Shown here one piece after another: positions 1-53,520 of a stretch of 64,000 nt of DNA. Under the pieces are notes generated by a model that was not told the DNA's origin, searched no databases, and worked only from the letters and a program-made list of their open reading frames with translations. Source of the stretch: a virus. The translations under genes were made by a program, and so were the position numbers. Location: UHGV virus genome UHGV-1493261; one strand, 5' to 3'. Each line of letters begins with the position of its first letter. Positions within the stretch are counted from its first letter, which is position 1.

Positions 1-2
1 TC

Positions 3-614
3 TTTAAACCACCCGTCGTAAAGGGGATCTACCCAGCACGAGGGCAAATCTACTACGTCAAAGGCTCCAATGGTAGCGGTAAATCCACTGTGCCGTCTCA
101 GCTGGCGGAGAGGGATCCTCAGGCGTATGTCGTGACCCATAACGGCAAGGTAATGCTGACTGTCTGTCCTTCGTTCAACGTGGTCTGTATCGGTAAATAT
201 GACAAGTCGAAGTCCAAGGGGGTTGATTCCCTGAAGGACACTGAGCAGATGTTGTTCGCGTTGTCTATTGCTGACCAACCAGAATACTTGAAATATGATG
301 TGATTTTCGAAGGTATCATTCCATCCACATTATTGAGTTCTTGGATCCCCCGTCTGACACGCCCACCACGTGAATTGGTTGTGCTCTTTATGGACACTCC
401 TCTTGAAACGTGTATCACCCGCGTTAAATCACGTAACGGCGGTGTGGACTTCAATGAAAGTCTGGTGGTCGAGAAGTGGGAGAGAGTTCATGACCATCGT
501 CAACGACATAAAGACTTGTTCCCTACGGTGGCTGCGGGTATGATGAAGTCTCACGGCCTAACAGTAGACCAGGCTGTGATGGCATTCCTCTGTCGTGATT
601 TTGGGAGTATCTGA
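3..614 (+). CDS. P-loop NTPase/kinase, 5'-partial at window edge; candidate kinase of the thymidine-modification pathway
   Basis: Frame is open from nt 3; Walker A GSNGSGKST lies upstream of the first in-window Met. Stop overlaps the start of the next gene (TGATG). Confidence 0.55.
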   Translation, partial: FKPPVVKGIYPARGQIYYVKGSNGSGKSTVPSQLAERDPQAYVVTHNGKVMLTVCPSFNVVCIGKYDKSKSKGVDSLKDTEQMLFALSIADQPEYLKYDVIFEGIIPSTLLSSWIPRLTRPPRELVVLFMDTPLETCITRVKSRNGGVDFNESLVVEKWERVHDHRQRHKDLFPTVAAGMMKSHGLTVDQAVMAFLCRDFGSI

Positions 615-1660
615 TGGAAATCAAAGCAATAAACAACAATGACATGCTGAAACAGGCTGTCTTGGCTATCCGTGAATTCGGGATCGAATCTGATCCTGGT
701 AATGCTGAAATCAATACTGATAGCACCCGCTTCCTTGATGGCGTGACCATAACCGTCGCCGACATCCGTGACCGCTGGCTATCCGTTGAAGGTCGTAACT
801 CATCGGCTATCGCCGCCATCGGCGAGACCTTCTGGGTTCTGTCCGGGCGCGATGACGTTCGCTTCCTGTCCCGCGTGTTGCCCCGCGCCGCCAACTTTTC
901 CGACAACGGCCACACATGGCGAGCTGCTTATGGTCCGCGTCTGTACGCTCATGGTCAGCTGGATAGCGTTATCAACCGCCTGCGCAAGAATCCAAACACT
1001 CGCCAGGCGTACCTCACCATCTATGATCCGGCTCTGGATTCAGATGCTGGTCTGGCGAAGTTCAGTGAGAGTGGCGAAGCAAAGACCAAGGACATGGTGT
1101 GTAACCTGGCTCTGTTGTTCGCCATCGTTGAAGGTCGCCTGAACCTGACGGTTATCAATCGCTCACAGGATGTTCTGTGGGGTATGAGTTCAATCAACTT
1201 CATTGAGTTCTCTATTCTTCAGGAAGTGATTGCTCGGGTGTTGGATGTTGACGTCGGCCAGTACAAGCTCTTCTCCAACAATCTTCATTACTACAACAAT
1301 GAAGTCAGCCAGAAGCAGCTGGGCAAGATCACGAAGGACACCAAAGTAGAAGCTGGGTTCATCAACTCCATGATCCACTTCACGAACGTGACCAACCAGA
1401 ACCATATCCGCGATCTGTTCACTGGCGTGCTTGTTCATTGTGACTTCGGTAGCCCTTGGGAAACTGTTGTTGCCTTCCTGAAGGAGTATGATGCGGATCG
1501 CGGTCTGATTGTGCAGATGGCATACTGCCTGCACTGCAAATTGAATAACAAGCTCATTAACCTGGACCTGATTCAGGATCATGGATTGAACACCGCGCTC
1601 ACCCATTCTCCGGTTGACCGCAAGATCGTTGATCCTAAGTTCCTGGAAGGTGTAGTATGA
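614..1660 (+). CDS. Thymidylate synthase-fold pyrimidine hydroxymethylase (candidate dUMP hydroxymethylase)
   Basis: 348 aa. The segment DMVCNLALLFAIVEGRLNLTVINRSQDVLWGMSSINFIEFSILQ parallels the ThyA / dCMP-hydroxymethylase catalytic core (Cys nucleophile followed by the Q-R-S-x-D-V/F-x-G motif); TRQAYLTIYDP resembles the ThyA R-R-x-I motif. Confidence 0.65.
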   Translation: MEIKAINNNDMLKQAVLAIREFGIESDPGNAEINTDSTRFLDGVTITVADIRDRWLSVEGRNSSAIAAIGETFWVLSGRDDVRFLSRVLPRAANFSDNGHTWRAAYGPRLYAHGQLDSVINRLRKNPNTRQAYLTIYDPALDSDAGLAKFSESGEAKTKDMVCNLALLFAIVEGRLNLTVINRSQDVLWGMSSINFIEFSILQEVIARVLDVDVGQYKLFSNNLHYYNNEVSQKQLGKITKDTKVEAGFINSMIHFTNVTNQNHIRDLFTGVLVHCDFGSPWETVVAFLKEYDADRGLIVQMAYCLHCKLNNKLINLDLIQDHGLNTALTHSPVDRKIVDPKFLEGVV

Positions 1661-25124: not shown

Positions 25125-27031
25125 TCATCCTCGGTTTCAAATAGACAAACATCGCTAAACCAGGTTTTGCGGTAATCGGCGGCCTCATCACCGAAGCCAT
25201 TCTTCAGTGACTGTTGATAGCCATCGTCCAGCGTGACCGTCGTAGTATACGCATCCAGGTTGTTTAGAATACGCTTGAAGTCTTCAGTGCTGTTGCCACC
25301 CAGACCTTTCAGATATTTCTTCTTCGTGATCTTCTTGGCATCGGGGGTCTTCAGGAACTCCTCATACTCGGTGTTGTTCATGAACTCATGCATCACCTTA
25401 CCACACCACACGCGCATATAAGGAGTACGCAGCAGCTTCAGCCTGCCCTGACGGACGTACTCTGGCCAGAACGTACAATACAGGGTGATCAACAACCCAC
25501 GGATGTGAATGCCGTCGTCGTCCGCATCGGTAGCCACAACAGTCTGTGGGTAACGGCTGATGTCAAGGGGCTGGCCTGGTACTGCACCACCGTGGATGGT
25601 ACACAGATTCTTGAACTCTTCGTTTGCCATCACCTTTGAGCGCGGGGCGTTCAAACAGTTGATGAACTTACCACGAAGCGGGAACAACCCGATCTTCTTG
25701 GTGTCGCGGGCGTTCAGGATAGGATTGGAGGCACTATCACCCTCTGTCAGCAACAGGGAGCATCCGCTGCGGTCACCACGGGCGGTCGCCGGGTAATACT
25801 TCTCAATCTCACGATAATCCCGCTTGCTGATGTCCTTCTTGGCCTTTTCAAACTCAGCATCATCCTGCTCATTGCGCAGGGAAGCCAGTTCTTTACTCAG
25901 ACCAGCCGTAACGAACTCAAGCGCCTTGCGGATCAGTTTATCGCTGGGCTTGTACGACGTACCGAACTGGCTGACAGGAGTGGTCATGCGCTCCTTGGTC
26001 TGGCTGTCAAAGCGTGGGTTGTTGATGTCGGCAGCGATGAACAAGGACATGTGGTTCTTGATCATTGCTGGCTTCAGCTCGGTCTTGAACTTCTTCACCA
26101 GCTGGGGACGAATCGCTGCCACGATCTGGTCGGCAACATAATCAACGTGAGGACCACCGATGTGGGTGGCAATAGAGTTCACGTATGATGCGTGCATGAA
26201 CGTACCGGATGAAGGGGCTACAGCAACAGACCAATCCCCGGTTTCGTCAACAGCCGAGCCAGCATGGAAGTAATCAACGAAATGGCCAAAGCGGTCAATC
26301 CGGATTTGCTTCCCGTTGAGAACAATCTTCAGGCGCGGGTTACACGCAGCCACTTCAAACGCGCGGCGATAGATCATCAGCAGGTTGTTCTGGTCAAGTC
26401 CTTTGACGCCCAGGCGAGCATAGTCAGGGATCCAGGCGATGGATGTGCCAGGACTGTTCACGTTGCTGATGACTGGGTTAGATTTCTTGCTCATGTTATC
26501 TTCAAACGTCTGAGTATAAGACTTCTTGCCGTCATTAGTCGTGACGCGGAACCATTTGGAGAACACGTTGACGAGGGACGCCCCTTCGCCATTCTGACCA
26601 CCGGACTTCTGGTTGTTGTACTCTTCGTCTTCGTCGTTGAAGTTCGATCCCGCATATAGAGAGCCGAACAACATTTCAGGAAGCCACTCGTTGGTGACGC
26701 CATGCTTGACCACAGGGATACCCCCGTTGTCAGCAACGATGATTTGACCGTTCATCGGGGAAACTGTGACGGTGATTTCCGTCAGGGATTTGCCCTCAGG
26801 GGTCTTGCTGTGGTCAACACAGTTGGTGATGATTTCATCAAACTGTTTGATCAGCGCGGGGGAGTACTCAAAGTTGTCACGGAAGATGACTTTGTCCTTA
26901 GTTGGGTCATACACCCACACCGTCCCCACAGACGAACGAATACTGCCCAGATGACGCTCTGGGCGGAGTAGGATATGCTCAACGTGAGTGAGCTTCTTGT
27001 ACTTGCGTTCAATATCAATTTTGTTGGACAT
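25121..27031 (-). CDS. DNA topoisomerase II large subunit (gp39-like, GyrB-type ATPase + Toprim)
   Basis: 636 aa. GyrB-like N-terminus (LTHVEHILLRPERHLGS); Toprim LLTEGDSA. Confidence 0.88.
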   Translation of the reverse strand: MSNKIDIERKYKKLTHVEHILLRPERHLGSIRSSVGTVWVYDPTKDKVIFRDNFEYSPALIKQFDEIITNCVDHSKTPEGKSLTEITVTVSPMNGQIIVADNGGIPVVKHGVTNEWLPEMLFGSLYAGSNFNDEDEEYNNQKSGGQNGEGASLVNVFSKWFRVTTNDGKKSYTQTFEDNMSKKSNPVISNVNSPGTSIAWIPDYARLGVKGLDQNNLLMIYRRAFEVAACNPRLKIVLNGKQIRIDRFGHFVDYFHAGSAVDETGDWSVAVAPSSGTFMHASYVNSIATHIGGPHVDYVADQIVAAIRPQLVKKFKTELKPAMIKNHMSLFIAADINNPRFDSQTKERMTTPVSQFGTSYKPSDKLIRKALEFVTAGLSKELASLRNEQDDAEFEKAKKDISKRDYREIEKYYPATARGDRSGCSLLLTEGDSASNPILNARDTKKIGLFPLRGKFINCLNAPRSKVMANEEFKNLCTIHGGAVPGQPLDISRYPQTVVATDADDDGIHIRGLLITLYCTFWPEYVRQGRLKLLRTPYMRVWCGKVMHEFMNNTEYEEFLKTPDAKKITKKKYLKGLGGNSTEDFKRILNNLDAYTTTVTLDDGYQQSLKNGFGDEAADYRKTWFSDVCLFETEDE

Positions 27032-39875: not shown

Positions 39876-41111
39876 TCAGCGTTTCAAGAGTGCCATGAGG
39901 TTGACGCTGCTGGACTTCGGCTTGTCCTCAACCTTGCGCACAGGCATCTTCAGGTTCGTACATACCTCGGATGGTTCCCAGCGCGTACCCTTTTGCAGGT
40001 GCCAGATATGCAGAGGAACACCAGTCTCAAAGAACACAGGCATCTTCCACTTCTGGACGCCTGGAACGTGCCCTGCAGGAGCCTTTTCACATAACAGGGT
40101 ATCTGGCAGCCAGAGCGAACGGGCTTCCCAGAGCGCTGCGCAGGAGTATTCAGGCCAGACGCGTTCCATGTAGTCTATCTCATCCCAGGTACGCTCTGCG
40201 TCCCACCCGATGTAACGGGTATTCTTCAGTCGGAAGAATTTCTTCAGCCAACAAGCACCGGAGGTTTCAAAGTTCAGGCGGTTGATGAACGTCAGGTGCC
40301 CGAACTCAGCCACACAATCCTGGAACGCCTGCTCAAGGTCGGCCTCAAGGATGTCACACTCTTCATCCGTGATAGGACAACCGTTGATCTTTTTCTTCCC
40401 GTGCTTGGTCACCCAATCGTCACGGTTGGACAAGAACGCCGCACCGTTGCGGTTGGACTCGCTTCCATCACGATCACGCAGCATGAAGCCAGGGACGTCA
40501 ATGGTGTATTCGTTCCCGAAGACCATGTTCAGGGCTTCCAGGAAGTTCCAGGCGCTCAGGCGACCGAAGTATTTCCAGGACATCGCCGTGTCCCACAGCT
40601 GGGTGAATTGTTCTGTCTTATCGATGCACACCAACATCCCACGGAAAGCGTCATATTGAGTACGACCAGCCAGCCAGTCAATATAGGACTGAACACACGG
40701 AATCATCTTGGACTTGCGGTAGCGACAGTCAGTATCGAATCGCATGCGTTCAAAGTTCAGGTTGTACCAGTCTGAGAAGCGCTGCATCTCTTCCTTAGAC
40801 TGAGGCGGCACAGGGAACTCACTGTAGATAGTCCACGGCCCGACGGCGTTATAGCAACAACCCCACAGGAATGCCATCCAGATCTTGCGCTCGACTTTCT
40901 GTTCGAGGCTGATGCCTTCAGTGACTTCGATCGCATAGTCCATCAGACGCATCTGCTGGTTGTGCTCTTCTGTGTAGGACAGCGCCTCCACCCAAGCCTT
41001 GAGCAGGTACATGCGATTCTCAGGTTTACGGTAGTCAACAGCTAGGTCAATCGGGTACTTCCATTCAGTAGGAGGCGTATAGCCCGTCGGCATTTTAGAT
41101 AGATGCGTCAT
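39876..41111 (-). CDS. Hypothetical protein (candidate DNA-modification enzyme by neighbourhood)
   Basis: 411-aa ORF adjacent to a P-loop kinase; no motif recognised. Confidence 0.5.
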   Translation of the reverse strand: MTHLSKMPTGYTPPTEWKYPIDLAVDYRKPENRMYLLKAWVEALSYTEEHNQQMRLMDYAIEVTEGISLEQKVERKIWMAFLWGCCYNAVGPWTIYSEFPVPPQSKEEMQRFSDWYNLNFERMRFDTDCRYRKSKMIPCVQSYIDWLAGRTQYDAFRGMLVCIDKTEQFTQLWDTAMSWKYFGRLSAWNFLEALNMVFGNEYTIDVPGFMLRDRDGSESNRNGAAFLSNRDDWVTKHGKKKINGCPITDEECDILEADLEQAFQDCVAEFGHLTFINRLNFETSGACWLKKFFRLKNTRYIGWDAERTWDEIDYMERVWPEYSCAALWEARSLWLPDTLLCEKAPAGHVPGVQKWKMPVFFETGVPLHIWHLQKGTRWEPSEVCTNLKMPVRKVEDKPKSSSVNLMALLKR

Positions 41112-41586
41112 CTTTCGCTTCCTCTTCAGGAGCCAGCTGAATGTCTTCTGGTTTCACGAACCCCATCGGACGTTCCCACATATCGATAAAGCGACGGTCA
41201 GCGGTCACGAACCACAGACGGGCTGCAGTGTGGGTCTTACTCGAGATGAACATCTGAGCATTCGTCTGGGTACGGAACGGAGCAGCCTGCAACCACTTGC
41301 CGAAGTCTTTGGACGACGGGTTGGCGTTCAGCTGGAACTGAGGGATGACGCAGTTCTTTTCAGGAATCAGGCGCACGGCAGTAATGTGCTTGGCGTTTCC
41401 GGTGTAGTCAATCGCAACAGCCACAGCATCGCGAGGGATTTGAATTTTCATTTTGGTTCCTTGAATATTTTGTAACCAGCAGCGCCGATAGACATCACCG
41501 CGCCAATACAGTACATCACAGTCACGTTCAACTTCTCTGAGGTTGTTAAGTCCAGAGGGGTGAAATGATAAGCTAGGGCAGTACAC
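41095..41586 (-). CDS. Hypothetical protein
   Basis: 163-aa ORF. Confidence 0.5.
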   Translation of the reverse strand: MYCPSLSFHPSGLNNLREVERDCDVLYWRGDVYRRCWLQNIQGTKMKIQIPRDAVAVAIDYTGNAKHITAVRLIPEKNCVIPQFQLNANPSSKDFGKWLQAAPFRTQTNAQMFISSKTHTAARLWFVTADRRFIDMWERPMGFVKPEDIQLAPEEEAKDDASI

Positions 41587-41647: not shown

Positions 41648-42565
41648 TCACCCCTTCTTCATCAGGTCAAGGAGAGAGCGCGACGCTGCCTTCGTTGCTT
41701 CTGGCTGGGCGCTCGCCTTGGTTTTAGTTTTGGATGCCTTCTGTGGCTTCTCAGGCACTCTGTGCGCCAAAGGATCCTGGCCGCCGATTTCACGAGTCAT
41801 CGGATTGGTTTCACAGTAGGCGTAAAAGTCTTTGGTGTCCATGTTAACTTCACGCAGTTCGGACCGTATCTGATGACAAATCGCATTACCCACAACCCAC
41901 AGCGGGGCGTCGTATGGGAGCACCGCCAACTCGGACTGCTGTTTGGTCGTGAACTCCTGGGTGTTGGTCTCTGGCGCTTTATACAGGATATCCTGTCCGC
42001 TGTAATCATCAACAGCCACAGTGAAGCCCAGCGCCAGCATTTCGGCCTTCGACTTCTCAAACTCCTTGGAGTAAGATTCGTTGCGCGACCAGCCGGAGTT
42101 CCCTGCTTCTTTACCAGAGCGACCACGGATACGAGCATCGTACTGATAGCGGTCGGGGTACGCAAAGTACAGCAGCGCCAATGATTCAATCGGATAGTTC
42201 TTGAACATCCATTCAGGACGCCATTTGTCCGATAGCATGAGGGGTTCTCCATCACACACCAGAGTGTAACCCTGAACCAACCAGCACTTGATTAGATCAC
42301 GAGCAATATCGCCTGAGCCTGTAGCAGCATGGATTGCATCCATTGAAGTCCAGGAAGCCAGGCCGGATTTGTTAGACACGGTGTACTGTCCAACGAAGAT
42401 TAACTTCAGCTCTCCGAACTTCAAGCCAAACGGGCGAGTCTTGTCACCAACGGTGTAGGTCAGTTCGGTAGGCTCCAGCTTAGTGCGCAGCCATTCGATG
42501 AACTGGACAACACGGGTGCCCTTACCCGTACCGCTGGTTCCTTTCACTACGATAATTTTTGCCAT
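41648..42565 (-). CDS. P-loop kinase (candidate 5-hydroxymethyl-dU DNA kinase)
   Basis: 305 aa. Walker A GTSGTGKGT at the N-terminus; Lys-rich C-terminal tail. Confidence 0.5.
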   Translation of the reverse strand: MAKIIVVKGTSGTGKGTRVVQFIEWLRTKLEPTELTYTVGDKTRPFGLKFGELKLIFVGQYTVSNKSGLASWTSMDAIHAATGSGDIARDLIKCWLVQGYTLVCDGEPLMLSDKWRPEWMFKNYPIESLALLYFAYPDRYQYDARIRGRSGKEAGNSGWSRNESYSKEFEKSKAEMLALGFTVAVDDYSGQDILYKAPETNTQEFTTKQQSELAVLPYDAPLWVVGNAICHQIRSELREVNMDTKDFYAYCETNPMTREIGGQDPLAHRVPEKPQKASKTKTKASAQPEATKAASRSLLDLMKKG

Positions 42566-42879: not shown

Positions 42880-43659
42880 CTATCGGACGTATTGATAATG
42901 ACTAATCAGGCGGTTTACCACTTCGACAATATTGCGGTTCAGGAAGTCGAAGTGGTTCTGGCCTTCTACTGGTTTAATATAAAGCATATCTTCCGAATTC
43001 GAAAGATCCAGTTTTTCATAATTGCCCTGAGGAACAAAGATGACAAAGATGTTGTTCAGGCCACACGGCTCGACATACTTCGGATTGTCATCAATCAGGA
43101 CATCGCCAGCCAGCAGATGCTTTTCGTCGGTGCTGACAAACCCGTTGAAGATACCAGGGAACTTATCATAGACAAACTGACGCTTGCTGCGCTCGTGTTC
43201 CGGCTCGCACTTCGACACCGCGATGAATTCAACATTGTCGAAATCTTCAAGCAAGATCTCCTTCAGATTCACCAGGAACTCGTAAGCGCCGGGGAGCGGG
43301 TTCATCTTGGCGTACAGGTCAGGGCGACGCCACCAATCCATAGGATCGTTACCGCTTGGCACACGTTGTTTGTGCATCCCCAATTGGACTTCATGGTATA
43401 GCCACGCCGGATGCGCACGTTCACGCATCAGAATAGCCAGGTCGCCAGCATGGGACATATAACACTCTTTGGTGATCGGCTGGAACTGGTATGACTTATG
43501 TTCCCCCGTAGCGATAGCAGCGGCGGCGATGTTCTCTTCGTTGAACCACTGCACCCAAGGGGAGAGGCTGTCGACCAACGTCAGGTCAACATCCACGAGG
43601 ACGCGATACAGGCCACCGACCTTTGATTTCATATCATAGATACAAACCAGGTTGTTCAT
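42880..43659 (-). CDS. HAD-superfamily 5'(3')-deoxyribonucleotidase-like protein
   Basis: 259 aa; N-terminal LVDVDLTLVDS resembles HAD motif I (D-x-D-x-T). Confidence 0.45.
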   Translation of the reverse strand: MNNLVCIYDMKSKVGGLYRVLVDVDLTLVDSLSPWVQWFNEENIAAAAIATGEHKSYQFQPITKECYMSHAGDLAILMRERAHPAWLYHEVQLGMHKQRVPSGNDPMDWWRRPDLYAKMNPLPGAYEFLVNLKEILLEDFDNVEFIAVSKCEPEHERSKRQFVYDKFPGIFNGFVSTDEKHLLAGDVLIDDNPKYVEPCGLNNIFVIFVPQGNYEKLDLSNSEDMLYIKPVEGQNHFDFLNRNIVEVVNRLISHYQYVR

Positions 43660-44059: not shown

Positions 44060-45641
44060 TCAACCTTTCTTCTTTTGCATCATGGCAAGAAGGTTCACAC
44101 GGCGCTTGTGTGACCAGCCGACCACGTCGAGGATAGACTGAATCGGATCAATGAAGGACTTCTCAAAGGCCGCCTGATAATCCACCCATTTGCCCAGACC
44201 AAGCTCCTCAGGGAAGAACTCAGGATATGCGAAGTAATTCTGGCCGAATGGGTTGCCCGGCTTCAACAACACCATCTGTACCTTATCACCAGACTCGATC
44301 ATCGGTAGACCCAGATCTTCGTTCTTCTCAACCAGACGGTTGTAACCCACACAAGCCTTGGCAGCAAAATGAGCACCAGAGATGAACGATCCGTCAGCAG
44401 CCACACACTTCTCTATGTCGGACACGCCTGACGCCTTGGCGATATCGTCTACAGAGAGTTTCATGTACTCCTCTTTGTACTGGGAGATGAGCGTCTGCAC
44501 TTCCTCTTCGGTGCCGAGTAGGATCTTCTCATAGCACTTAACAAGACGCTCACGACACCATTCCGGCGTGGTGGACTTGCGGGCTTCCAGACCTTTGAAC
44601 TTGATCTTCGGCTTCTCGTACTTGATACCCTCACTGTCGTACACGGCCATGGCATACATCTTCTTGGCTCGCCAGACAGCGGCTGACGCAATGACCTCAC
44701 GCTCCCATACCATGCGCTGTTCAAATCCGTTCATGGTGTTACACAGAAGCTGTGCCCACTCATTGGTCTTCGGCTGGTAGTTGTCTTTGATCCATTGGTC
44801 GATATTATCAACCATAGCATGATGGTCAGTAACATCAGGCCACAACTGCTTGACAAGACGCTCAATGCAGATGTAGTTGGAGTCGGTATCCCCTGCGATG
44901 ACGAAGTCCTGGCCTGTTGTACCACACAGCTTGTTCAGATAGTCATCAGTGTAACGCTTGTTCCACTTGTTGATCAGCTGACCGGATGTGGTGATGGCTT
45001 CGGCAATGTTGAGGTTGAAGTACTCTTTGAACCAGACGTTCGAGATAGCGCCATAACCTGCGTTCATCAAGATCTTCAGACCTTGCTGTAGGGTGTCTTG
45101 AGCAACACCCAGATCTTCCCACTTCTTCATCACTTCGGTCAGGGCATCAAGATCAATGTTCTTGTGCTCTTCATACCACTCTGGGTCATAGTAGCGAGAC
45201 TTCATGGCAGACTCAAGATGGAAGTCGCCCTTCGACATCTCTTTACACCAGCCAGCCCACTGCTCATACTTCAGACCCTTGGCCTTCTCTACTTTACGGT
45301 CGCTGTAGATACCACGCATGATTTCAGACAGGAACGACATCTTCTCGTTGCTGAAGAATTGAACGTTCGGCGTGAACGACACGTTGTAGCGGCGCAGGGT
45401 TTCAAAGTGGAACTCACCCAGGGCAACCAACTCATCAACAACCTGCAGGCGTTCGTCAACCGCACGCAACAGCTTGTCGTGAAGGGCTTTCATCAACCGA
45501 CGTTTGTGCATCGGCGTTGCCATGTTATTCATCTGAGCAGCCAGCTCTTCACACATAGCCTCAATAATCTCACGGCGCTGGTGTTTGTCGCCAACGATAG
45601 TCTCTGGACCGAGGTTGTACTGCTGAATGATGTGTGGATAT
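44060..45641 (-). CDS. DNA polymerase (family B, T4 gp43-like), exon 2
   Basis: Begins YPHIIQQYNLGPETI (completes motif A; T4 SLYPSIIRQVNISPETI). Motif B KILMNAGYG; motif C VIAGDTDS. The first 16 codons of the ORF-track ORF are assigned to the intron. Confidence 0.8.
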
Positions 45642-46824
45642 CGCTTGTGTTCAGGGATGCTCGCTATTTCATCCCCCGTGTTCGTCATTCAGTTTACCGA
45701 ACACTGCTGTATGTCACCATACAGGCCAGACTATATCACAATCTCCAGAACTGTCTAGAGATTCTCTCCATTTCGAGGCGCTTGCCCCTACTCTACTCGC
45801 TTCAGATCAGACGCTTAGTCGTCGGTCTTGCTTTCGATAGTCGTTGAACCTTGTCACCCACTACTTCAAGGAAATCATCTGGGTTTAACCCAGCGTAACC
45901 AAAGAGTCGTTTGAAGTTTCTTGCCAACTTGCCCCACTCTACAGTCTTCTTACCTAAATCCTGTTGTGTCAAGCAATGAGCGGTTATTTCTTCCCCACTC
46001 ATTCTGGCAAACATTTCCTTCCTTTTCTCTAAAGAATCTTTAAATTTCTTCTTCGCTTTCGGATCGGCGTTTGGTCCCACCTGGCCTTTCTTTGCGCCTA
46101 TTATACATTTCAACTCACCACTCAAATATCTCGGGTCTTGCGTTGAAACTTTGATAACACTACCATCCAGGAGTCTTACGGGGACAGTGCCTTTGTGAAC
46201 AAGACTGGAATTGGCTTTAATTCTTTCAGCTGTTTCTTTATCAGCGCCGAAATAAGCCTTACCCTTCATATCTGCCCTTTTAACACCCTTCTTAGATTTG
46301 GATATCTTTCTTCTGACATCTTCCCTCTTCGAAGGATTCCCTTCTCCCGTCAACATTTCAACATTCTTTCTTCTCAATTCCTCACTTAGTTCCCCGTTAT
46401 GGGATTTCATCATGAAGTAGGCGAAGAACGCTGATTTATCTTCTGGTAATGCTTCATGCAATAGGCGATGAGCCTCCACATGATCTTTGTACAACAGGTT
46501 TACGATATTCCATTCTTCTTTAGAGAACTCAGGATAATGCGCCTGGGGCAGTATATGATGGTGCTCACTGTATTCATCACCATCATAACTGTGTTCCTCA
46601 CAGAACTTCAAATATTCTTCTATCTTAGATTCTTCAATTACCAAATCATTTCGATAGAACAGACTCTTGATTTCCTTCATGACCTTACTCCTTCACCGTG
46701 GTTACAGAGTATTTAGGTCTTCGTGGCCGACCTTGGCTGCTGATTATCTCTAAAGAGACTTCCCAGCAATTAAGAGAGTTATTCGATGGTTGTCGCCAAC
46801 CAAAGCCCCTATGCTGCTAACTTA
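45642..46824 (-). mobile_element. Group I intron (inferred) in the DNA polymerase gene, carrying an HNH homing endonuclease
   Basis: Exon 1 stops 5 codons after DLNSL; exon 2 resumes at YPHII. Boundaries placed so the 5' exon ends in U and the intron ends in G, giving DLNSLYPHII. GATATAGTC (S-element-like) lies near the 3' end. Confidence 0.6.
45802..46680 (-). CDS. HNH homing endonuclease (intron-encoded)
   Basis: 292 aa. HNH motif HHILPQAHYPEF...NIVNLLYKDHVEAH; Lys-rich C-terminal DNA-binding region. Confidence 0.75.
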   Translation of the reverse strand: MKEIKSLFYRNDLVIEESKIEEYLKFCEEHSYDGDEYSEHHHILPQAHYPEFSKEEWNIVNLLYKDHVEAHRLLHEALPEDKSAFFAYFMMKSHNGELSEELRRKNVEMLTGEGNPSKREDVRRKISKSKKGVKRADMKGKAYFGADKETAERIKANSSLVHKGTVPVRLLDGSVIKVSTQDPRYLSGELKCIIGAKKGQVGPNADPKAKKKFKDSLEKRKEMFARMSGEEITAHCLTQQDLGKKTVEWGKLARNFKRLFGYAGLNPDDFLEVVGDKVQRLSKARPTTKRLI

Positions 46825-48242
46825 AGGGAGTTCAAATCTTCCGAGAAGACCCAGAAGTAGATTCCTGGTGTCACATCCATGACGTATGCACCCTCAAAGT
46901 CGGTCGGACCATCGTATACACGCTGGATCTTAGGCACTATCCCCTTCTCATACAGGCGATAGTAGCACATGGCCAGCCACGGAGCCACAGTGCCCAGACC
47001 GTCTTCATAGTTGGACTTGGTGCGGTACGCAAGGACGAACATCAGCTGGAGCAGACGCAGCTTCTGTTCAAGTCGCCATACCAGCTTAACGTCTTTGATA
47101 CCATATCGGGTGTGTTTGCAGTAGTCGTTGAAGTACAGATCAAAGAGCGACTTGCTCTCACTGTAGTCCATCTTCTTCTCACCCAGCTCACAATACGCAA
47201 TCCAGTCAAGAGAGTAGCGTTCACGGGTGGTGTACGTGTGTTTCTTGTAGATCTGCATATAATCGAGCATAGGGCAACCCACGAACTGATACGTCGTGAT
47301 GTCACCCTTCTTATCACGGATGATGCGCTTCTTAATGATGCCCCAAGGACTGAGGCGCGACGTTTCAGCCTCACCCAGAACCTGATTCATGCGCTCAACA
47401 AGATAAGGGCTATCAAACGTCTCAATGTTCCAGCCAGTCCATCCGTCGAACTGACGCTGTGACCAGAAGTCTAGGAACGAGCGCAGCAGATCTTGTTCGG
47501 TGGTGAACTCCTGATAAACAACCTCAAGGCCGCCGATCTCTTTGTCTTCGGTGTCATATGCGAACTTATTGCGGTCTTTGGCACAGGGCATACCCCAGAC
47601 CATGAACTTATTGGTCGCCATATCCTGAAGCTGGATCAGGGTAATGGGGAACGCCGCATTCATGTCTTGGGTGATCTTGCCGTTGCTGTCAATGATAGGG
47701 AACTGATCAGTGACGTTGTTGCTGATGAAAGAACCAGGGAAGTGCTCACGGACAAAATCATGGTTGGCCAGCACTTGTTTATGGAAGCGGCGAATGCGCG
47801 CCTCATTCCCTTTGAACGTCTGCTGCTCAATGGTTGGGTGAGGGAATGGACCTTTGGTCATCTTTCCGTCTTTCCACCCGGCGGAGAACACTTCGATATC
47901 GAGGTTAGCAATATGGATGTTGGTGTAATCCGGCTCAATCTTTCCAGGAAAGCTATGGGCGATGAACTGGTATGCATAATCGGTCTGCCCGTAAATGGCA
48001 GCACCCTGGACTTCCTTGTACTCTTCAAGATAGTTGTCAGCGTCACGCATGGAAGGGAACTGCTTGGCTACCAGGGGTTCATTGAGCAGGCCGACCTTTT
48101 CAACATTTGAATAGTCAGCCGTGGGTAAATAGAGAGTAGGTTCGAATTTCTTTTTCAACAGACGGCGATTACCCATGTCATCTGCAATTCGAATCAACAG
48201 GTCATTGCCCCTGCGGGCAACGTTCGTATAGAAAACGGTCAT
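46825..48242 (-). CDS. DNA polymerase (family B, T4 gp43-like), exon 1
   Basis: N-terminal 3'-5' exonuclease domain (Exo I ANLDIEV); ends in the first half of motif A (DLNSL). Confidence 0.8.
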
Positions 48243-49816: not shown

Positions 49817-49842
49817 GAAAGGGGCTTAACGCCCCCTTTCTT
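49817..49842. terminator. Bidirectional intrinsic terminator between convergent genes
   Basis: AAAGGGGC-TTAAC-GCCCCCTTTCTT between the plus-strand stop (49802) and minus-strand stop (49841). Confidence 0.6.
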
Positions 49843-50299
49843 ATTCATCCCAGAAGTCGTCATCATCCCCGACAGCAGCCAGTTCCGTGTCAAGTTCTTC
49901 ATCAGTAAACGGTGGCAGCACCCCGTTCTGAATCAGATAATCCATCTCATCGTCTTCCAGCTGCAGATCAGTGGCAATATACAGCGCTCCACTGCCCTCT
50001 TCGTCCGTCTCGATGCTATACGAAGTGTATGGCACCCCATTCACCGTGATGATAATAGAGGTCGGATCCTCTTGATCTACGTGCGCCTCAAACGGTACGC
50101 CATCAATCGGCGCATCTTCCAAGAAGGTGGCAAGGGCTACTGCAGCACGAACAACATCAGTGCCTTCAACGCCTGCATAGATCTCTTCCGCACCCGTCTC
50201 TTCACGTTCAAACAACTCAATCGTGATACCGTCTTGAACACCAGTCCATACGGGGATGTCATTGGTGTATTCTGATTCAAACAATTTGGAGGTTGGCAT
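49841..50299 (-). CDS. Highly acidic protein
   Basis: 152 aa, extremely Asp/Glu-rich (ends DDDDFWDE); preceded by two copies of the CCTAAATACCCC motif. Confidence 0.5.
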   Translation of the reverse strand: MPTSKLFESEYTNDIPVWTGVQDGITIELFEREETGAEEIYAGVEGTDVVRAAVALATFLEDAPIDGVPFEAHVDQEDPTSIIITVNGVPYTSYSIETDEEGSGALYIATDLQLEDDEMDYLIQNGVLPPFTDEELDTELAAVGDDDDFWDE

Positions 50300-50444
50300 G
50301 TTAGGTTCCTCAGTGGGTTAGCCATATGGGGTATTTAGGCTTCCCGCTTGGCAAAGCCTGGTTTGTACAGGACGCATATCGGAAATGTTGGAGGAAGGTT
50401 TTCATAGATACCCCACACTGGTTGTATGGGGTATTTAGGAGGGA

Positions 50445-51659
50445 TCAGGAAGGGGTGAATTCGTTTACAGGCACTGCTTCGGGGATAGCCAGTTCAGGAC
50501 ATGCTGCCTTCATCGGCTCGATGTACGGCTTGCTACCCACAATCCAGAACAGAGTGTTCTCATTGAGCAACTCTGGCTTGTTCTGCTGGATCCAGGTCAT
50601 GACCTTGCCTTCATAGCGAGGATGCAACTCAATATCACCCCACTGATATTCCATCAGGTCATTGTAACGAACCCAATTAGTGGTGTGAAGATCCCAATGG
50701 TGTACCTCAAAGCGAGGAAGCACGACCTCTGGCTCTTCCTTCTGCCTGATACCACTTAGGAGGCCAGCCAGAGAAACGCTCTTAGAGGCATGCTGAAGCT
50801 CCTTCTTACCGTGTACATAGTCTGGGTTGTCGTGATAACGACGAGTGAAGTCGACAATGTGTGGCAGATTCGCCTGTTTACCGATGATGCGCAGGCGGCT
50901 CTCGATAAAGTCAAGGCGGTTAGGACCGATGCCGATCAGATACACACGCTTCAGATTAGGTTTAGGGTGCATCGCCAGTCCAGTCAGAATGCTTGTGCAT
51001 GAGTTGCAGGATCCAGCAGGGATAATCAGATCGGTAATATGGTCAGGGATGTTGGCAACCTGCTCGCCACCCAGCATATGGAACCCAGCAATCCTCTCAG
51101 GGGAGTGGGTTGTATGGTCGAGAGTGATACCATACTCCAGATAATACGCCTTTGGATTCTGTTGTTCGATCAACTTCTTACAGCGCGGCTGGATGGTGCT
51201 GTTGTATCCCGATCCGACGAAGTTGAACTCACTACCAAACCAGGCCGACATTGCCACCATGTCGTGGTTCATACATGTCGTGGGTTTGGTCGCGCCGAGT
51301 ACAGTAGTTGTGTGGCCACCGAAGTGCCGAGAGACTGCTGTCGCCATAGGGGACTGTGGACTACCAACGACAGTGCCGTGGATGATGTCGGGGGAGCCTC
51401 CGGCCTTGAGGTGCTCAACCATCAGCCAGATGGCCTGACGGAGTTTGCTGCCGTTGATACCCTGTTGGCCATTCGCGTAATTGGACAACGGTGCGAAGTA
51501 ATCTTCACGCTTGAACCAGACCTGCTGGTTGGTTTCGGGATTGACGACAAGTTCACACGGGGTGTGCTTGTAGAGATAGTCTTCCCAGTGAACCAGATTG
51601 CGGTCGAGGGAAAGGGTATCGAAAATGGTCTTGTTCATTCTATTTTCTCCTGTAGACAT
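50445..51659 (-). CDS. PLP-dependent fold-type II enzyme (ACC deaminase / D-cysteine desulfhydrase-like)
   Basis: 404 aa. FKREDYF ... GINGSKLRQAIWLM ... GTVVGSPQSPMATAVSRHFGGHTTTVLG parallels the ACC-deaminase pattern KRDD ... GGNKTRKLE ... TAGGIQSNHARQTAA with the PLP Lys in N-G-S-K. Confidence 0.55.
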   Translation of the reverse strand: MSTGENRMNKTIFDTLSLDRNLVHWEDYLYKHTPCELVVNPETNQQVWFKREDYFAPLSNYANGQQGINGSKLRQAIWLMVEHLKAGGSPDIIHGTVVGSPQSPMATAVSRHFGGHTTTVLGATKPTTCMNHDMVAMSAWFGSEFNFVGSGYNSTIQPRCKKLIEQQNPKAYYLEYGITLDHTTHSPERIAGFHMLGGEQVANIPDHITDLIIPAGSCNSCTSILTGLAMHPKPNLKRVYLIGIGPNRLDFIESRLRIIGKQANLPHIVDFTRRYHDNPDYVHGKKELQHASKSVSLAGLLSGIRQKEEPEVVLPRFEVHHWDLHTTNWVRYNDLMEYQWGDIELHPRYEGKVMTWIQQNKPELLNENTLFWIVGSKPYIEPMKAACPELAIPEAVPVNEFTPS

Positions 51660-51708
51660 TGGCTTATCATAGTGTATCTACAGGAGTATAGAAAAGGAGA
51701 ATCTCGGC

Positions 51709-52371
51709 TTATTTCTTGAATAAACGAAGGAACTTCATCATGTTGTCCATGAAAGTCGGCTTCTTGACCTTTTGTTTTACCGGAGCGCCCTGATCATTCA
51801 GAACACGACTGACCGGAGGAGTAGGCGGTGTCGGCGCTTTCGTTTCACAGGCCGGAACGATGTTCACGTCATGATGAGAAGACTCAGCTGTAGTGTTAAC
51901 AACATTGTTCTCCTGGACGACGACAGGCTTGACGAGATTCTTTTCATACTCGCGAGCCATGGCCTGGTACTTCCGATTCTCTGCGTCAAAGTCCATAGAA
52001 ACGACTTTACGACGGCGGCGCGTCGCGCTCTCATCACCATAGAAATCGTATCCGTTCTTGACCAGCCAGTGTACAGCTTGGACAAATGAATGGAAGATCA
52101 TGAACGGCTGGCCATTACCCTCTTCAGCAGCGGTGATGCCGGTGTAGCCCATGAGCACAACCTGACCCTTTACGTCGAGGTCAAAGGATGTACATTCACC
52201 GTGCTGGTTCAGATCACGCGGAGCCAGCTGGGAATCACGATGGATATAATTCGGCGACAAAAACTCATTCAGAGTTCGTTTGTTGCCTTTGTATTCAAAC
52301 AGACGAATACAGATGGGAGTTGTCAGTTCATGCCATTCGGCATCGTTGACCCAGATAGAAACATTACGCAT
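51709..52371 (-). CDS. Hypothetical protein
   Basis: 220-aa ORF; Pro/Thr-rich linker and basic C-terminus. Confidence 0.5.
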   Translation of the reverse strand: MRNVSIWVNDAEWHELTTPICIRLFEYKGNKRTLNEFLSPNYIHRDSQLAPRDLNQHGECTSFDLDVKGQVVLMGYTGITAAEEGNGQPFMIFHSFVQAVHWLVKNGYDFYGDESATRRRRKVVSMDFDAENRKYQAMAREYEKNLVKPVVVQENNVVNTTAESSHHDVNIVPACETKAPTPPTPPVSRVLNDQGAPVKQKVKKPTFMDNMMKFLRLFKK

Positions 52372-52709: not shown

Positions 52710-52798
52710 TGGCGGAAGGTGAAGGATTCGAACCTTCGGGGGCTAAAAGCCCCACTCGATTAGCAGTCGAGTCCCTTAAACCTCTCGGGCAACCTTCC
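52710..52798 (-). tRNA. tRNA-Ser (anticodon GCT)
   Basis: Manual cloverleaf: acceptor GGAAGGT/ACCTTCC, anticodon loop CTGCTAA, long variable arm GGGGCTTTTAGCCCC, T-loop GGTTCGAATCC, encoded CCA. Confidence 0.7.
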
Positions 52799-53016
52799 AA
52801 TTTGGACGGGCTTCGCACCCGATTGAGCATTTGATCTGCCGTAGCCCAACTCCCCGCGCTTCACAGCGCCGATTGGTTAACTGGTGACCAGTGCCTTCTG
52901 GTTAGATCCCCTGGAACTTTACAGGCTTCGCGCCCAACCATTTCTGGAAGTTGAGGCATCGTTTCCGATGTGGAGTCCCCTCATTTTACACAGCTGGCTG
53001 CAACGCTTACCGTGTT

Positions 53017-53100
53017 TGGTGTGAGTGGATGGATTCGAACCACCGCGCTGTTACGGGGAGATTTACAGTCTCCTGCATTCGACCGCTCTGCCACACTCAC
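53017..53100 (-). tRNA. tRNA-Tyr (anticodon GTA)
   Basis: Acceptor GTGAGTG/CACTCAC, anticodon stem GGAGA/TCTCC with loop CTGTAAA, 12-nt variable arm, T-arm GGTGG-TTCGAAT-CCATC, encoded CCA. Confidence 0.65.
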
Positions 53101-53216
53101 ATTTGGTGGGTGTTACTATCGTCGTCTTCGGATTCCGTTCGGCTATTGGACGTCGCTTCAAGAGCTTGTCGGTCGCGTACTTCTTGCCTATTCACTTTCG
53201 TTCACACCCATAATTC

Positions 53217-53291
53217 TGGCGGTGCCTCAAGGACTCGAACCTTGCTATCACGGATTAACAGTCCGCCGCTTCACCATTTAGCTAAAGCACC
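53217..53291 (-). tRNA. tRNA-Asn (anticodon GTT)
   Basis: Acceptor GGTGCTT/AGGCACC (one G-U), anticodon loop CTGTTAA, T-arm CAAGG-TTCGAGT-CCTTG, discriminator G, CCA. Confidence 0.7.
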
Positions 53292-53299
53292 TGAATATT

Positions 53300-53375
53300 T
53301 GGCATGCCCTCCAGGACTCGAACCTGGGTTGTACGGTTTTGGAGACCGACCTCATAGCCGCCAGATCAAGGGCAC
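53300..53375 (-). tRNA. tRNA-Trp (anticodon CCA)
   Basis: 76 nt with canonical numbering: T-arm CCAGG-TTCGAGT-CCTGG, anticodon loop CTCCAAA, acceptor GTGCCCT/AGGGCAT, CCA. Confidence 0.7.
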
Positions 53376-53443
53376 ACACCTTACAACGAACTATACTGTA
53401 TAAAGGTTATTGAAACAAACGTTTATTTTATTCAACCATAATA

Positions 53444-53520
53444 TGGTGATCCTGATTGGGTTTGAACCAATGACCAATGAATTATGAGTTCACTGCTCTA
53501 ACCGACTGAGCTACAGGACC
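53444..53520 (-). tRNA. tRNA with CAT anticodon (elongator Met or Ile-lysidine type)
   Basis: Acceptor GGTCCTG/CAGGATC, canonical D-arm TAGCTCAGTCGGTTAGAGC, anticodon loop CTCATAA, T-arm ATTGG-TTCAAAC-CCAAT, CCA. Anticodon stem lacks initiator features. Confidence 0.7.

Follow-up and report, generated by a model that had tools for sequence, protein, structure and literature searches.

A probable PLP-dependent O-serinylthymidine (DNA) decarboxylase of the 5-NeOmdU pathway in a ViI-like phage genome

A reading frame on the minus strand of a 64,000-nucleotide stretch of phage DNA, which was analyzed as a whole and is called the window here, raises the question of what a PLP-dependent enzyme resembling ACC deaminase and D-cysteine desulfhydrase might be doing in a bacteriophage. 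A sequence-only reading of the locus had taken the product for a fold-type II PLP enzyme, considered such an enzyme unusual in a phage and proposed that it builds or attaches an amino-acid-derived side chain on a modified base.

Reading frame, spread and predicted fold of the PLP protein

In the ORF list of the window, the minus strand from 50445 to 51659 is one uninterrupted frame of 404 codons. The frame includes YANGQQGINGSKLRQAIW, whose lysine is residue 72 and is encoded by the AAA codon at 51444-51446; residue numbers below are those of this frame unless noted. The longest ORF form, 404 aa, runs to 51659, and the true start is probably the ATG at 51638 (Met8), since an AGGAG sits 8 nt 5' of it, PHROG 3650 matches the protein full-length over residues 8-404 (E=1.4e-239), and the closest annotated relative of the gene, in Enterobacter phage fGh-Ecl02 (Kuttervirus), encodes 397 aa. 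The gene is therefore described as follows.

50445..51638, minus strand: CDS of the predicted PLP-dependent O-serinyl-thymidine (DNA) decarboxylase, ViI gp226 orthologue, 397 aa from Met8

The frame originally proposed, 50445-51659, is thus real and conserved, but its start probably is not the right one. Overlapping plus-strand ORFs (50326-50616, 51039-51719 and others) were set aside as by-products, since conservation follows the minus-strand frame. Annotated N-termini of gp226-type proteins differ widely among records, from 397 to 431 aa and more, and the annotated ViI CDS at the locus examined (25539-26813) was compared with the window starts at 51638 and 51659. The short N-terminus is favoured by the conserved region and the ribosome-binding site, and published residue numbers (K92 of ViI, for instance) are accordingly shifted by 20-27 relative to those of the likely mature protein. 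The notion that such an enzyme is unusual in a phage did not survive the database searches, as megablast finds the gene in 258 phage records (80-95% nucleotide identity) and tblastn in 348, and it is conserved across Ackermannviridae.

With the single protein sequence as query, phmmer returned nothing from the PDB at E<=1, and Pfam PALP (PF00291) aligned with residues 33-256 at E=8.3e-7 and 29.1 bits, under its gathering score of 35; some close homologues have precomputed Pfam hits listed. Membership of the ACC deaminase, D-cysteine desulfhydrase or threonine dehydratase families was rejected, as no NCBIfam model matched at E<=1. A family profile was required to reach ACC deaminase and D-cysteine desulfhydrase. 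At E<=0.001 the homologues number 429, with identities down to about 40% among the 120 listed, and 38 diverse homologues make up the family alignment and profile that are also the basis of the AlphaFold2 model. Against the PDB, this profile matched the ACC deaminases 1rqx (E=2e-6), 1f2d (E=2.3e-5) and 1j0a (E=0.012) as well as Salmonella D-cysteine desulfhydrase 4d8t (E=5.6e-4).

The AlphaFold2 model (mean pLDDT 89.7, pTM 0.89) predicts a two-domain fold like that of tryptophan synthase beta with a lysine at the canonical position. Foldseek returned 332 PDB matches at E<=0.001, and all of the best 50 of the 332 are fold-type II PLP enzymes. Salmonella D-cysteine desulfhydrase ranks first (E=8.8e-12, probability 1.00, TM 0.52-0.70, 13-16% identity), followed by ACC deaminases and the Pyrococcus ACC-deaminase homologue 1j0a, with serine/threonine dehydratases, SbnA, cysteine synthases and tryptophan synthase beta at lower ranks. 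The best solved fold matches are the ACC deaminases of Pseudomonas (1rqx/1tzk) and Hansenula (1f2d) and the D-cysteine desulfhydrase of Salmonella (4d8t/4d8w), which compare with the model at Foldseek E values of about 1e-11 to 1e-8 and TM 0.5-0.7; PDB searches by sequence and by fold found no solved structure of a gp226-type family member. At the level of family profile, AlphaFold2 model and Foldseek, the initial assignment as a fold-type II PLP enzyme is confirmed. The likeness to ACC deaminase and D-cysteine desulfhydrase had been placed in the N-terminal third of the protein; the likeness itself holds, but it is not confined to that third, as the whole fold matches, including a C-terminal Y-E-G-K motif. 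Within the frame, the candidate active-site elements are as follows.

51444..51446, minus strand: codon of Lys72 (Lys65 in the 397-aa numbering), N-G-S-K within QGINGSKLRQ, the predicted Schiff-base (internal aldimine) lysine
51354..51362, minus strand: S-P-Q motif, Ser100-Pro101-Gln102, invariant, placed by profile alignment to 1rqx
51000..51014, minus strand: G-S-C-N-S loop, residues 216-220, the predicted PLP phosphate-binding loop, aligned with the loop region of 1f2d
50604..50615, minus strand: Y-E-G-K motif, Tyr349-Glu350-Gly351-Lys352, invariant in the 38 sequences

The N-G-S-K lysine, singled out from the beginning as the PLP lysine and still the predicted one, is invariant in 38/38 family members. 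In the profile alignment, counted from chain residue 31, it falls on Lys51 of Pseudomonas ACC deaminase, and it also aligns with K92 of ViI gp226 and K36 of M6 gp52. The S-P-Q motif corresponds to S78-N79-Q80 of ACC deaminase, the substrate/carboxylate loop, with N79 replaced by an invariant Pro. The G, N and S of the G-S-C-N-S loop are invariant or nearly so in the family alignment, and the fold suggests that this loop binds the PLP phosphate. Towards the C-terminus, H-P-x-Y-E-G-K aligns with D-P-V-Y294-E295-G-K of ACC deaminase, a stretch that is not significant alone, and Glu350 is predicted to pair with the pyridine nitrogen of PLP. Lys51, Ser78, Tyr294 and Glu295, the known catalytic residues of ACC deaminase, have as their equivalents K72, S100, Y349 and E350, all invariant, with the C-terminal alignment weak when considered alone; the equivalent of Q80 is kept as well.

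In contrast to these shared features, the PLP protein is about 60 residues longer than ACC deaminase and D-cysteine desulfhydrase and carries a hypervariable disordered insert at residues 279-305 (397-aa numbering), the sole poorly modelled segment. A conserved DNA-binding insert was considered for this segment and rejected; its sequence and length (8-48 aa) are hypervariable across the family, which makes a conserved functional element unlikely.

The structural likeness invites the alternative that the phage encodes an enzyme of free-amino-acid metabolism, such as a threonine ammonia-lyase/dehydratase, an ACC deaminase or a D-cysteine desulfhydrase, that reshapes host metabolism. The records of relatives do name "threonine dehydratase", "threonine ammonia lyase" and "ACC deaminase/D-cysteine desulfhydrase-like", the nearest solved folds are those of the latter two enzymes, and the equivalents of K51, S78, Y294 and E295 are kept. 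However, identity to the solved members is only 13-16%, neither NCBIfam nor the single-sequence PDB search gave a match at E<=1, names of the "threonine dehydratase" type are automatic transfers from the superfamily, and the 92%-identical gp226 of Salmonella phage ViI decarboxylates a serine tethered to DNA. We regard a free-amino-acid enzyme as extremely improbable.

Orthology to ViI gp226 and the partner genes

The window derives from a ViI-like phage of the Ackermannviridae: in reversed orientation, it is collinear with the part of ViI that extends from about 38.8 kb, across the genome origin, to about 126 kb, and a 25-kb test piece is nearest to Escherichia phage vB_EcoM-ZQ1 (95.9% identity over 90%). 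The PLP protein is 92% identical to ViI gp226 (orf00226, Vi01_182, YP_004327553) over 394 aa without a gap, and none of the 31 substitutions lies within the invariant motifs; gp226 is annotated with 20 more residues at its N-terminus, a difference that probably stems from annotation. The gene also occupies the same genomic position as in ViI, between the tRNA cluster and gp181 homologue on one side and the DNA polymerase on the other, and has the same partner genes. In contrast, ViI gene 183, which is next to gp226, is missing beside the PLP gene in the window. The protein thus combines full-length high identity, an equivalent of K92 and the partner genes of a gp226-type enzyme.

ViI gp226 is one of five genes whose pooled lysates rebuild 5-NeOmdU on 5-hmdU DNA (Lee et al., PNAS 2018, PMC5889632). 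The purified protein is yellow with an absorbance peak at 410-425 nm, and it turns 5-O-serinylthymidine (O-SerT) in DNA into a 301 u nucleoside, 5-NeOmdU (5-aminoethoxymethyl-dU), the product of O-SerT decarboxylation; labelling with 13C3,15N-serine revealed the loss of exactly one carbon, and lysate mixes without gp226 build up a 345 u (+44 u) nucleoside (Lee et al., NAR 2021/22, PMC8989533). K92 is the Schiff-base lysine of gp226 by prediction, from a Phyre2 alignment to 1j0a (PMC8989533). Two checks that the sequence-only reading had suggested, PLP absorbance and the product formed without the enzyme, have accordingly already been carried out for ViI gp226 (PMC8989533). The whole pathway gene set is conserved across Ackermannviridae according to a review and a 2026 preprint, which also put the share of T replaced by 5-NeOmdU at about 40% in ViI and CBA120 and at about 16% in phiHS2. 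The PLP gene is an already known enzyme type, identified in 2018, characterised in 2021 and routinely recognised in Ackermannviridae genomes, and its 92% identity to the characterised gp226 makes it an ordinary, expected gene of its phage family.

The other pathway genes that lie in the window are the following.

1..613, plus strand: 5-hmdU DNA kinase 1, gp67 orthologue, 88% identical to gp67 residues 18-219; HMUDK_HMUD1 PF18748, E=8.1e-107
614..1633, plus strand: thymidylate-synthase homologue adjoining kinase 1, 75% identical to ViI orf66; Pfam Thymidylat_synt, E=1.4e-15
39876..41111, minus strand: amino acid:DNA transferase (aGPT-Pplase clade 2), gp247 orthologue, 90% identical over 411 aa; Pfam ADDT PF18724, E=4.5e-60
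41648..42565, minus strand: 5-hmdU DNA kinase 2, gp243 orthologue, 85% identical over 304 aa; HMUD2 PF18747, E=1.3e-158

The kinase 1 gene is cut at its 5' end by the window edge. The adjoining thymidylate-synthase homologue is predicted to be a dUMP hydroxymethyltransferase that would supply 5-hmdUMP, and a dU hydroxymethyltransferase has been reported next to the 5-HMUDK kinase (PMC5889632). The gp247 orthologue is, by its orthology, the likely serine:DNA transferase that makes the substrate of the decarboxylase. A sixth pathway gene, the orthologue of ViI gp160, a clade 1 aGPT-Pplase (PMC5889632), belongs to a part of the genome beyond the window. The pathway genes are scattered rather than clustered, as is typical of the Ackermannviridae family.

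Orthology to gp226, the biochemistry of gp226, the synteny with ViI, the partner genes, the fold and motifs, and the family-wide gene set together make it very probable that the product of the PLP gene catalyses the final step of the pathway by which ViI-like (Ackermannviridae) phages hypermodify thymidine to 5-NeOmdU. We infer that the orthologue in the window has the same function as ViI gp226.

A second alternative concerns the step rather than the pathway. Fold-type II enzymes typically carry out beta-replacement through an aminoacrylate intermediate, and O-acetylserine sulfhydrylases, SbnA and tryptophan synthase beta do occur lower in the fold-search list, which would suit a PLP-dependent beta-replacement enzyme that attaches serine to 5-hmdU or phospho-5-hmdU in DNA. 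However, purified ViI gp247 alone transfers L-serine onto phosphorylated 5-hmdU DNA, the serine adduct forms without gp226, and gp226 acts afterwards (PMC8989533), leaving the attaching enzyme with next to no probability. The earlier proposal of an amino-acid-derived side chain on a 5-hmdU-derived base therefore fits the biochemistry of the 92%-identical gp226, and of its wording "building or attaching", building is the part that stands, as decarboxylation after attachment, while attaching would be the work of the gp247 orthologue. For the same reason, the assay that had been suggested, with Ser/Gly/Cys donors on 5-hmdU or phospho-5-hmdU DNA, would be negative for the PLP protein alone.

Proposed pathway and mechanism

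In the route that we propose for a gp226-type decarboxylase in this phage, the thymidylate-synthase homologue would make 5-hmdUMP, the phage polymerase would put 5-hmdU into DNA, and the 5-hmdU DNA kinases would phosphorylate the hydroxymethyl group within the DNA polymer. The side-chain oxygen of free L-serine would then displace the phosphate through the amino acid:DNA transferase, giving 5-O-serinylthymidine, and the PLP enzyme would strip CO2 off the DNA-tethered serine to leave the 2-aminoethoxy group of 5-NeOmdU. For the ViI enzymes three of these steps have been demonstrated: phosphorylation of 5-hmdU in DNA by the kinase, displacement of the phosphate by the hydroxyl of serine through gp247 to give O-SerT, and release of CO2 by gp226 to give 5-NeOmdU. 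The finished modified DNA would be resistant to many restriction endonucleases.

Within the PLP enzyme, alignment suggests that PLP is bound to Lys72 as the internal aldimine. Transaldimination onto PLP by the free alpha-amine of the DNA-bound serine would follow, the alpha-carboxylate would leave as CO2, and reprotonation and release would complete the reaction. Most fold-type II PLP enzymes have Ser or Thr, not Glu, at the position facing the pyridine nitrogen; here Glu350, the counterpart of ACC deaminase Glu295, may protonate or contact that nitrogen and so provide a stronger electron sink for the carbanionic (quinonoid) decarboxylation intermediate. The S-P-Q loop has an invariant Pro in place of N79, a change that may orient the carboxylate at right angles to the plane of the cofactor (Dunathan geometry). 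Since fold-type II PLP enzymes do not typically catalyse decarboxylation, these residue-level roles are drawn from alignment and general PLP enzymology. The proposed reaction also sets the gp226 type apart from its nearest structural relatives, as it is a decarboxylation of a polymer-bound substrate, whereas ACC deaminase and D-cysteine desulfhydrase catalyse deamination and desulfhydration of free amino acids.

The closest parallel in reaction type is gp52 of Pseudomonas phage M6, which in the 5-NedU pathway likewise carries out PLP-dependent decarboxylation of a DNA-tethered amino acid. Its N-terminal TPVE...KRED..APL...SK motif aligns with the PLP protein, placing its predicted lysine, K36, on K65/K72. 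Clear homology had been expected for M6 gp52, yet it proved marginal: by hhalign the two proteins are only distantly related (probability 25%, E=8e-4, 22% identity across 210 columns), and M6 gp52 was not among the tblastn matches of the PLP protein at E<=0.001. It also differs in being shorter (278 aa), in acting on C-alpha-glycinylthymidine and in needing a radical-SAM isomerase upstream.

This comparison bears on the possibility that the PLP enzyme decarboxylates another amino acid tethered to DNA, so that the final base would not be 5-NeOmdU. The wider family is diverse (429 homologues, about 40% identity at the lowest among those listed) and is paired with different partner enzymes in metagenomic clusters, and M6 gp52 has C-alpha-glycinyl-T as its substrate instead. 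In contrast, the transferase and the decarboxylase of this phage are 90% and 92% identical to the ViI enzymes, and ViI, CBA120 and phiHS2, all Ackermannviridae, carry 5-NeOmdU; moreover, neither a radical-SAM isomerase nor another tailoring gene was found beside the transferase and decarboxylase genes in the window annotation. With both enzymes at 90-92% identity and no extra tailoring genes nearby, a different tethered amino acid is very unlikely. All of the ACC-deaminase catalytic residues (Lys, Ser, Tyr-Glu) are retained in this family, on a fold-type II scaffold, although its substrate is an amino acid joined to a base of duplex DNA; base flipping might present that base to the active site, and the invariant S-P-Q and Y-E-G-K motifs might turn the chemistry to CO2 loss. 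There is a slim chance that, within such a mechanism, this orthologue has a substrate range or product unlike that of gp226.

With the gp226-type assignment preferred, the relevance of the locus is mainly one of annotation, as most GenBank records of this gene read "hypothetical protein" or, misleadingly, "threonine dehydratase / ammonia lyase", while the correct name would be PLP-dependent O-serinylthymidine (DNA) decarboxylase of the 5-NeOmdU pathway. The PLP gene, the kinases and the transferase together predict that the DNA of this phage contains 5-NeOmdU and resists many restriction enzymes, which bears on the cloning, sequencing and phage-therapy use of Ackermannviridae. What is new in the question is limited to a family-wide problem of structure and reaction specificity, namely how an ACC-deaminase-like site comes to decarboxylate a DNA-bound substrate.

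Neighbouring loci

Several features around the PLP gene and its partners set this genome apart from its relatives or bear on the modification genes; they are listed here in the order in which they are discussed.

51709-52371, minus strand: ORF directly upstream of the PLP gene, 220 aa, 47% identical to Vi01_181
52710-53520, minus strand: five tRNA genes, Ser-GCT, Tyr-GTA, Asn-GTT, Trp-CCA and Met-CAT, just upstream of the PLP-enzyme region
46809-48242, minus strand: DNA polymerase part 1, 477 aa, corresponding to ViI Pol residues 1-473
45802-46680, minus strand: ORF in the 1.18-kb polymerase insert, 292 aa, with an HNH-like motif (HHILPQ...H)
44060-45688, minus strand: DNA polymerase part 2, 542 aa, corresponding to ViI Pol residues 474-997, with its own ATG
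41095-41586, minus strand: ORF between 5-hmdU DNA kinase 2 and the transferase, 163 aa, GTG start, overlapping the transferase start
42880-43659, minus strand: 5'(3')-deoxyribonucleotidase (NT5C) domain protein, 259 aa, Pfam E=1.5e-8

On one side of the PLP gene, the 220-aa ORF, which gave no Pfam match, is a local divergence hot spot, at 47% identity to ViI compared with 85-92% for the flanking genes. The tRNA genes of fGh-Ecl02 at the same place are Ile, Asn, Tyr and Ser, so that the tRNA set differs between close relatives. On the other side, only about 145 bp (50300-50444) separate the PLP gene from the homologue of Vi01_184 (49841-50299), and a tblastn search found no match in the window to Vi01_183, which follows gp226 in ViI and is DUF3990-like in fGh-Ecl02.

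The DNA polymerase gene is split on the minus strand (44060-48242) into two ORFs. The 292-aa ORF of the insert has no Pfam match; 33 phage records contain the same insert and annotate it as an HNH endonuclease between two "DNA polymerase" CDSs. A search for a group I intron in the split gene gave no Rfam hit at gathering thresholds, and from the sequence the insert could be either an intron or the mark of a truly split polymerase.

The remaining observations concern the surroundings of kinase 2. The 163-aa ORF, which has no Pfam match and might belong to the modification module as an accessory, stands at the place of two small ViI ORFs (gp244 and gp245). The NT5C-domain gene lies two genes upstream of kinase 2, with a 101-aa ORF between them, and its product may shape the dTMP and 5-hmdUMP pools. 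At the position of kinase 2 itself, the CDS of fGh-Ecl02 is 1599 nt long and annotated "putative homing endonuclease", compared with 915 nt in ViI.
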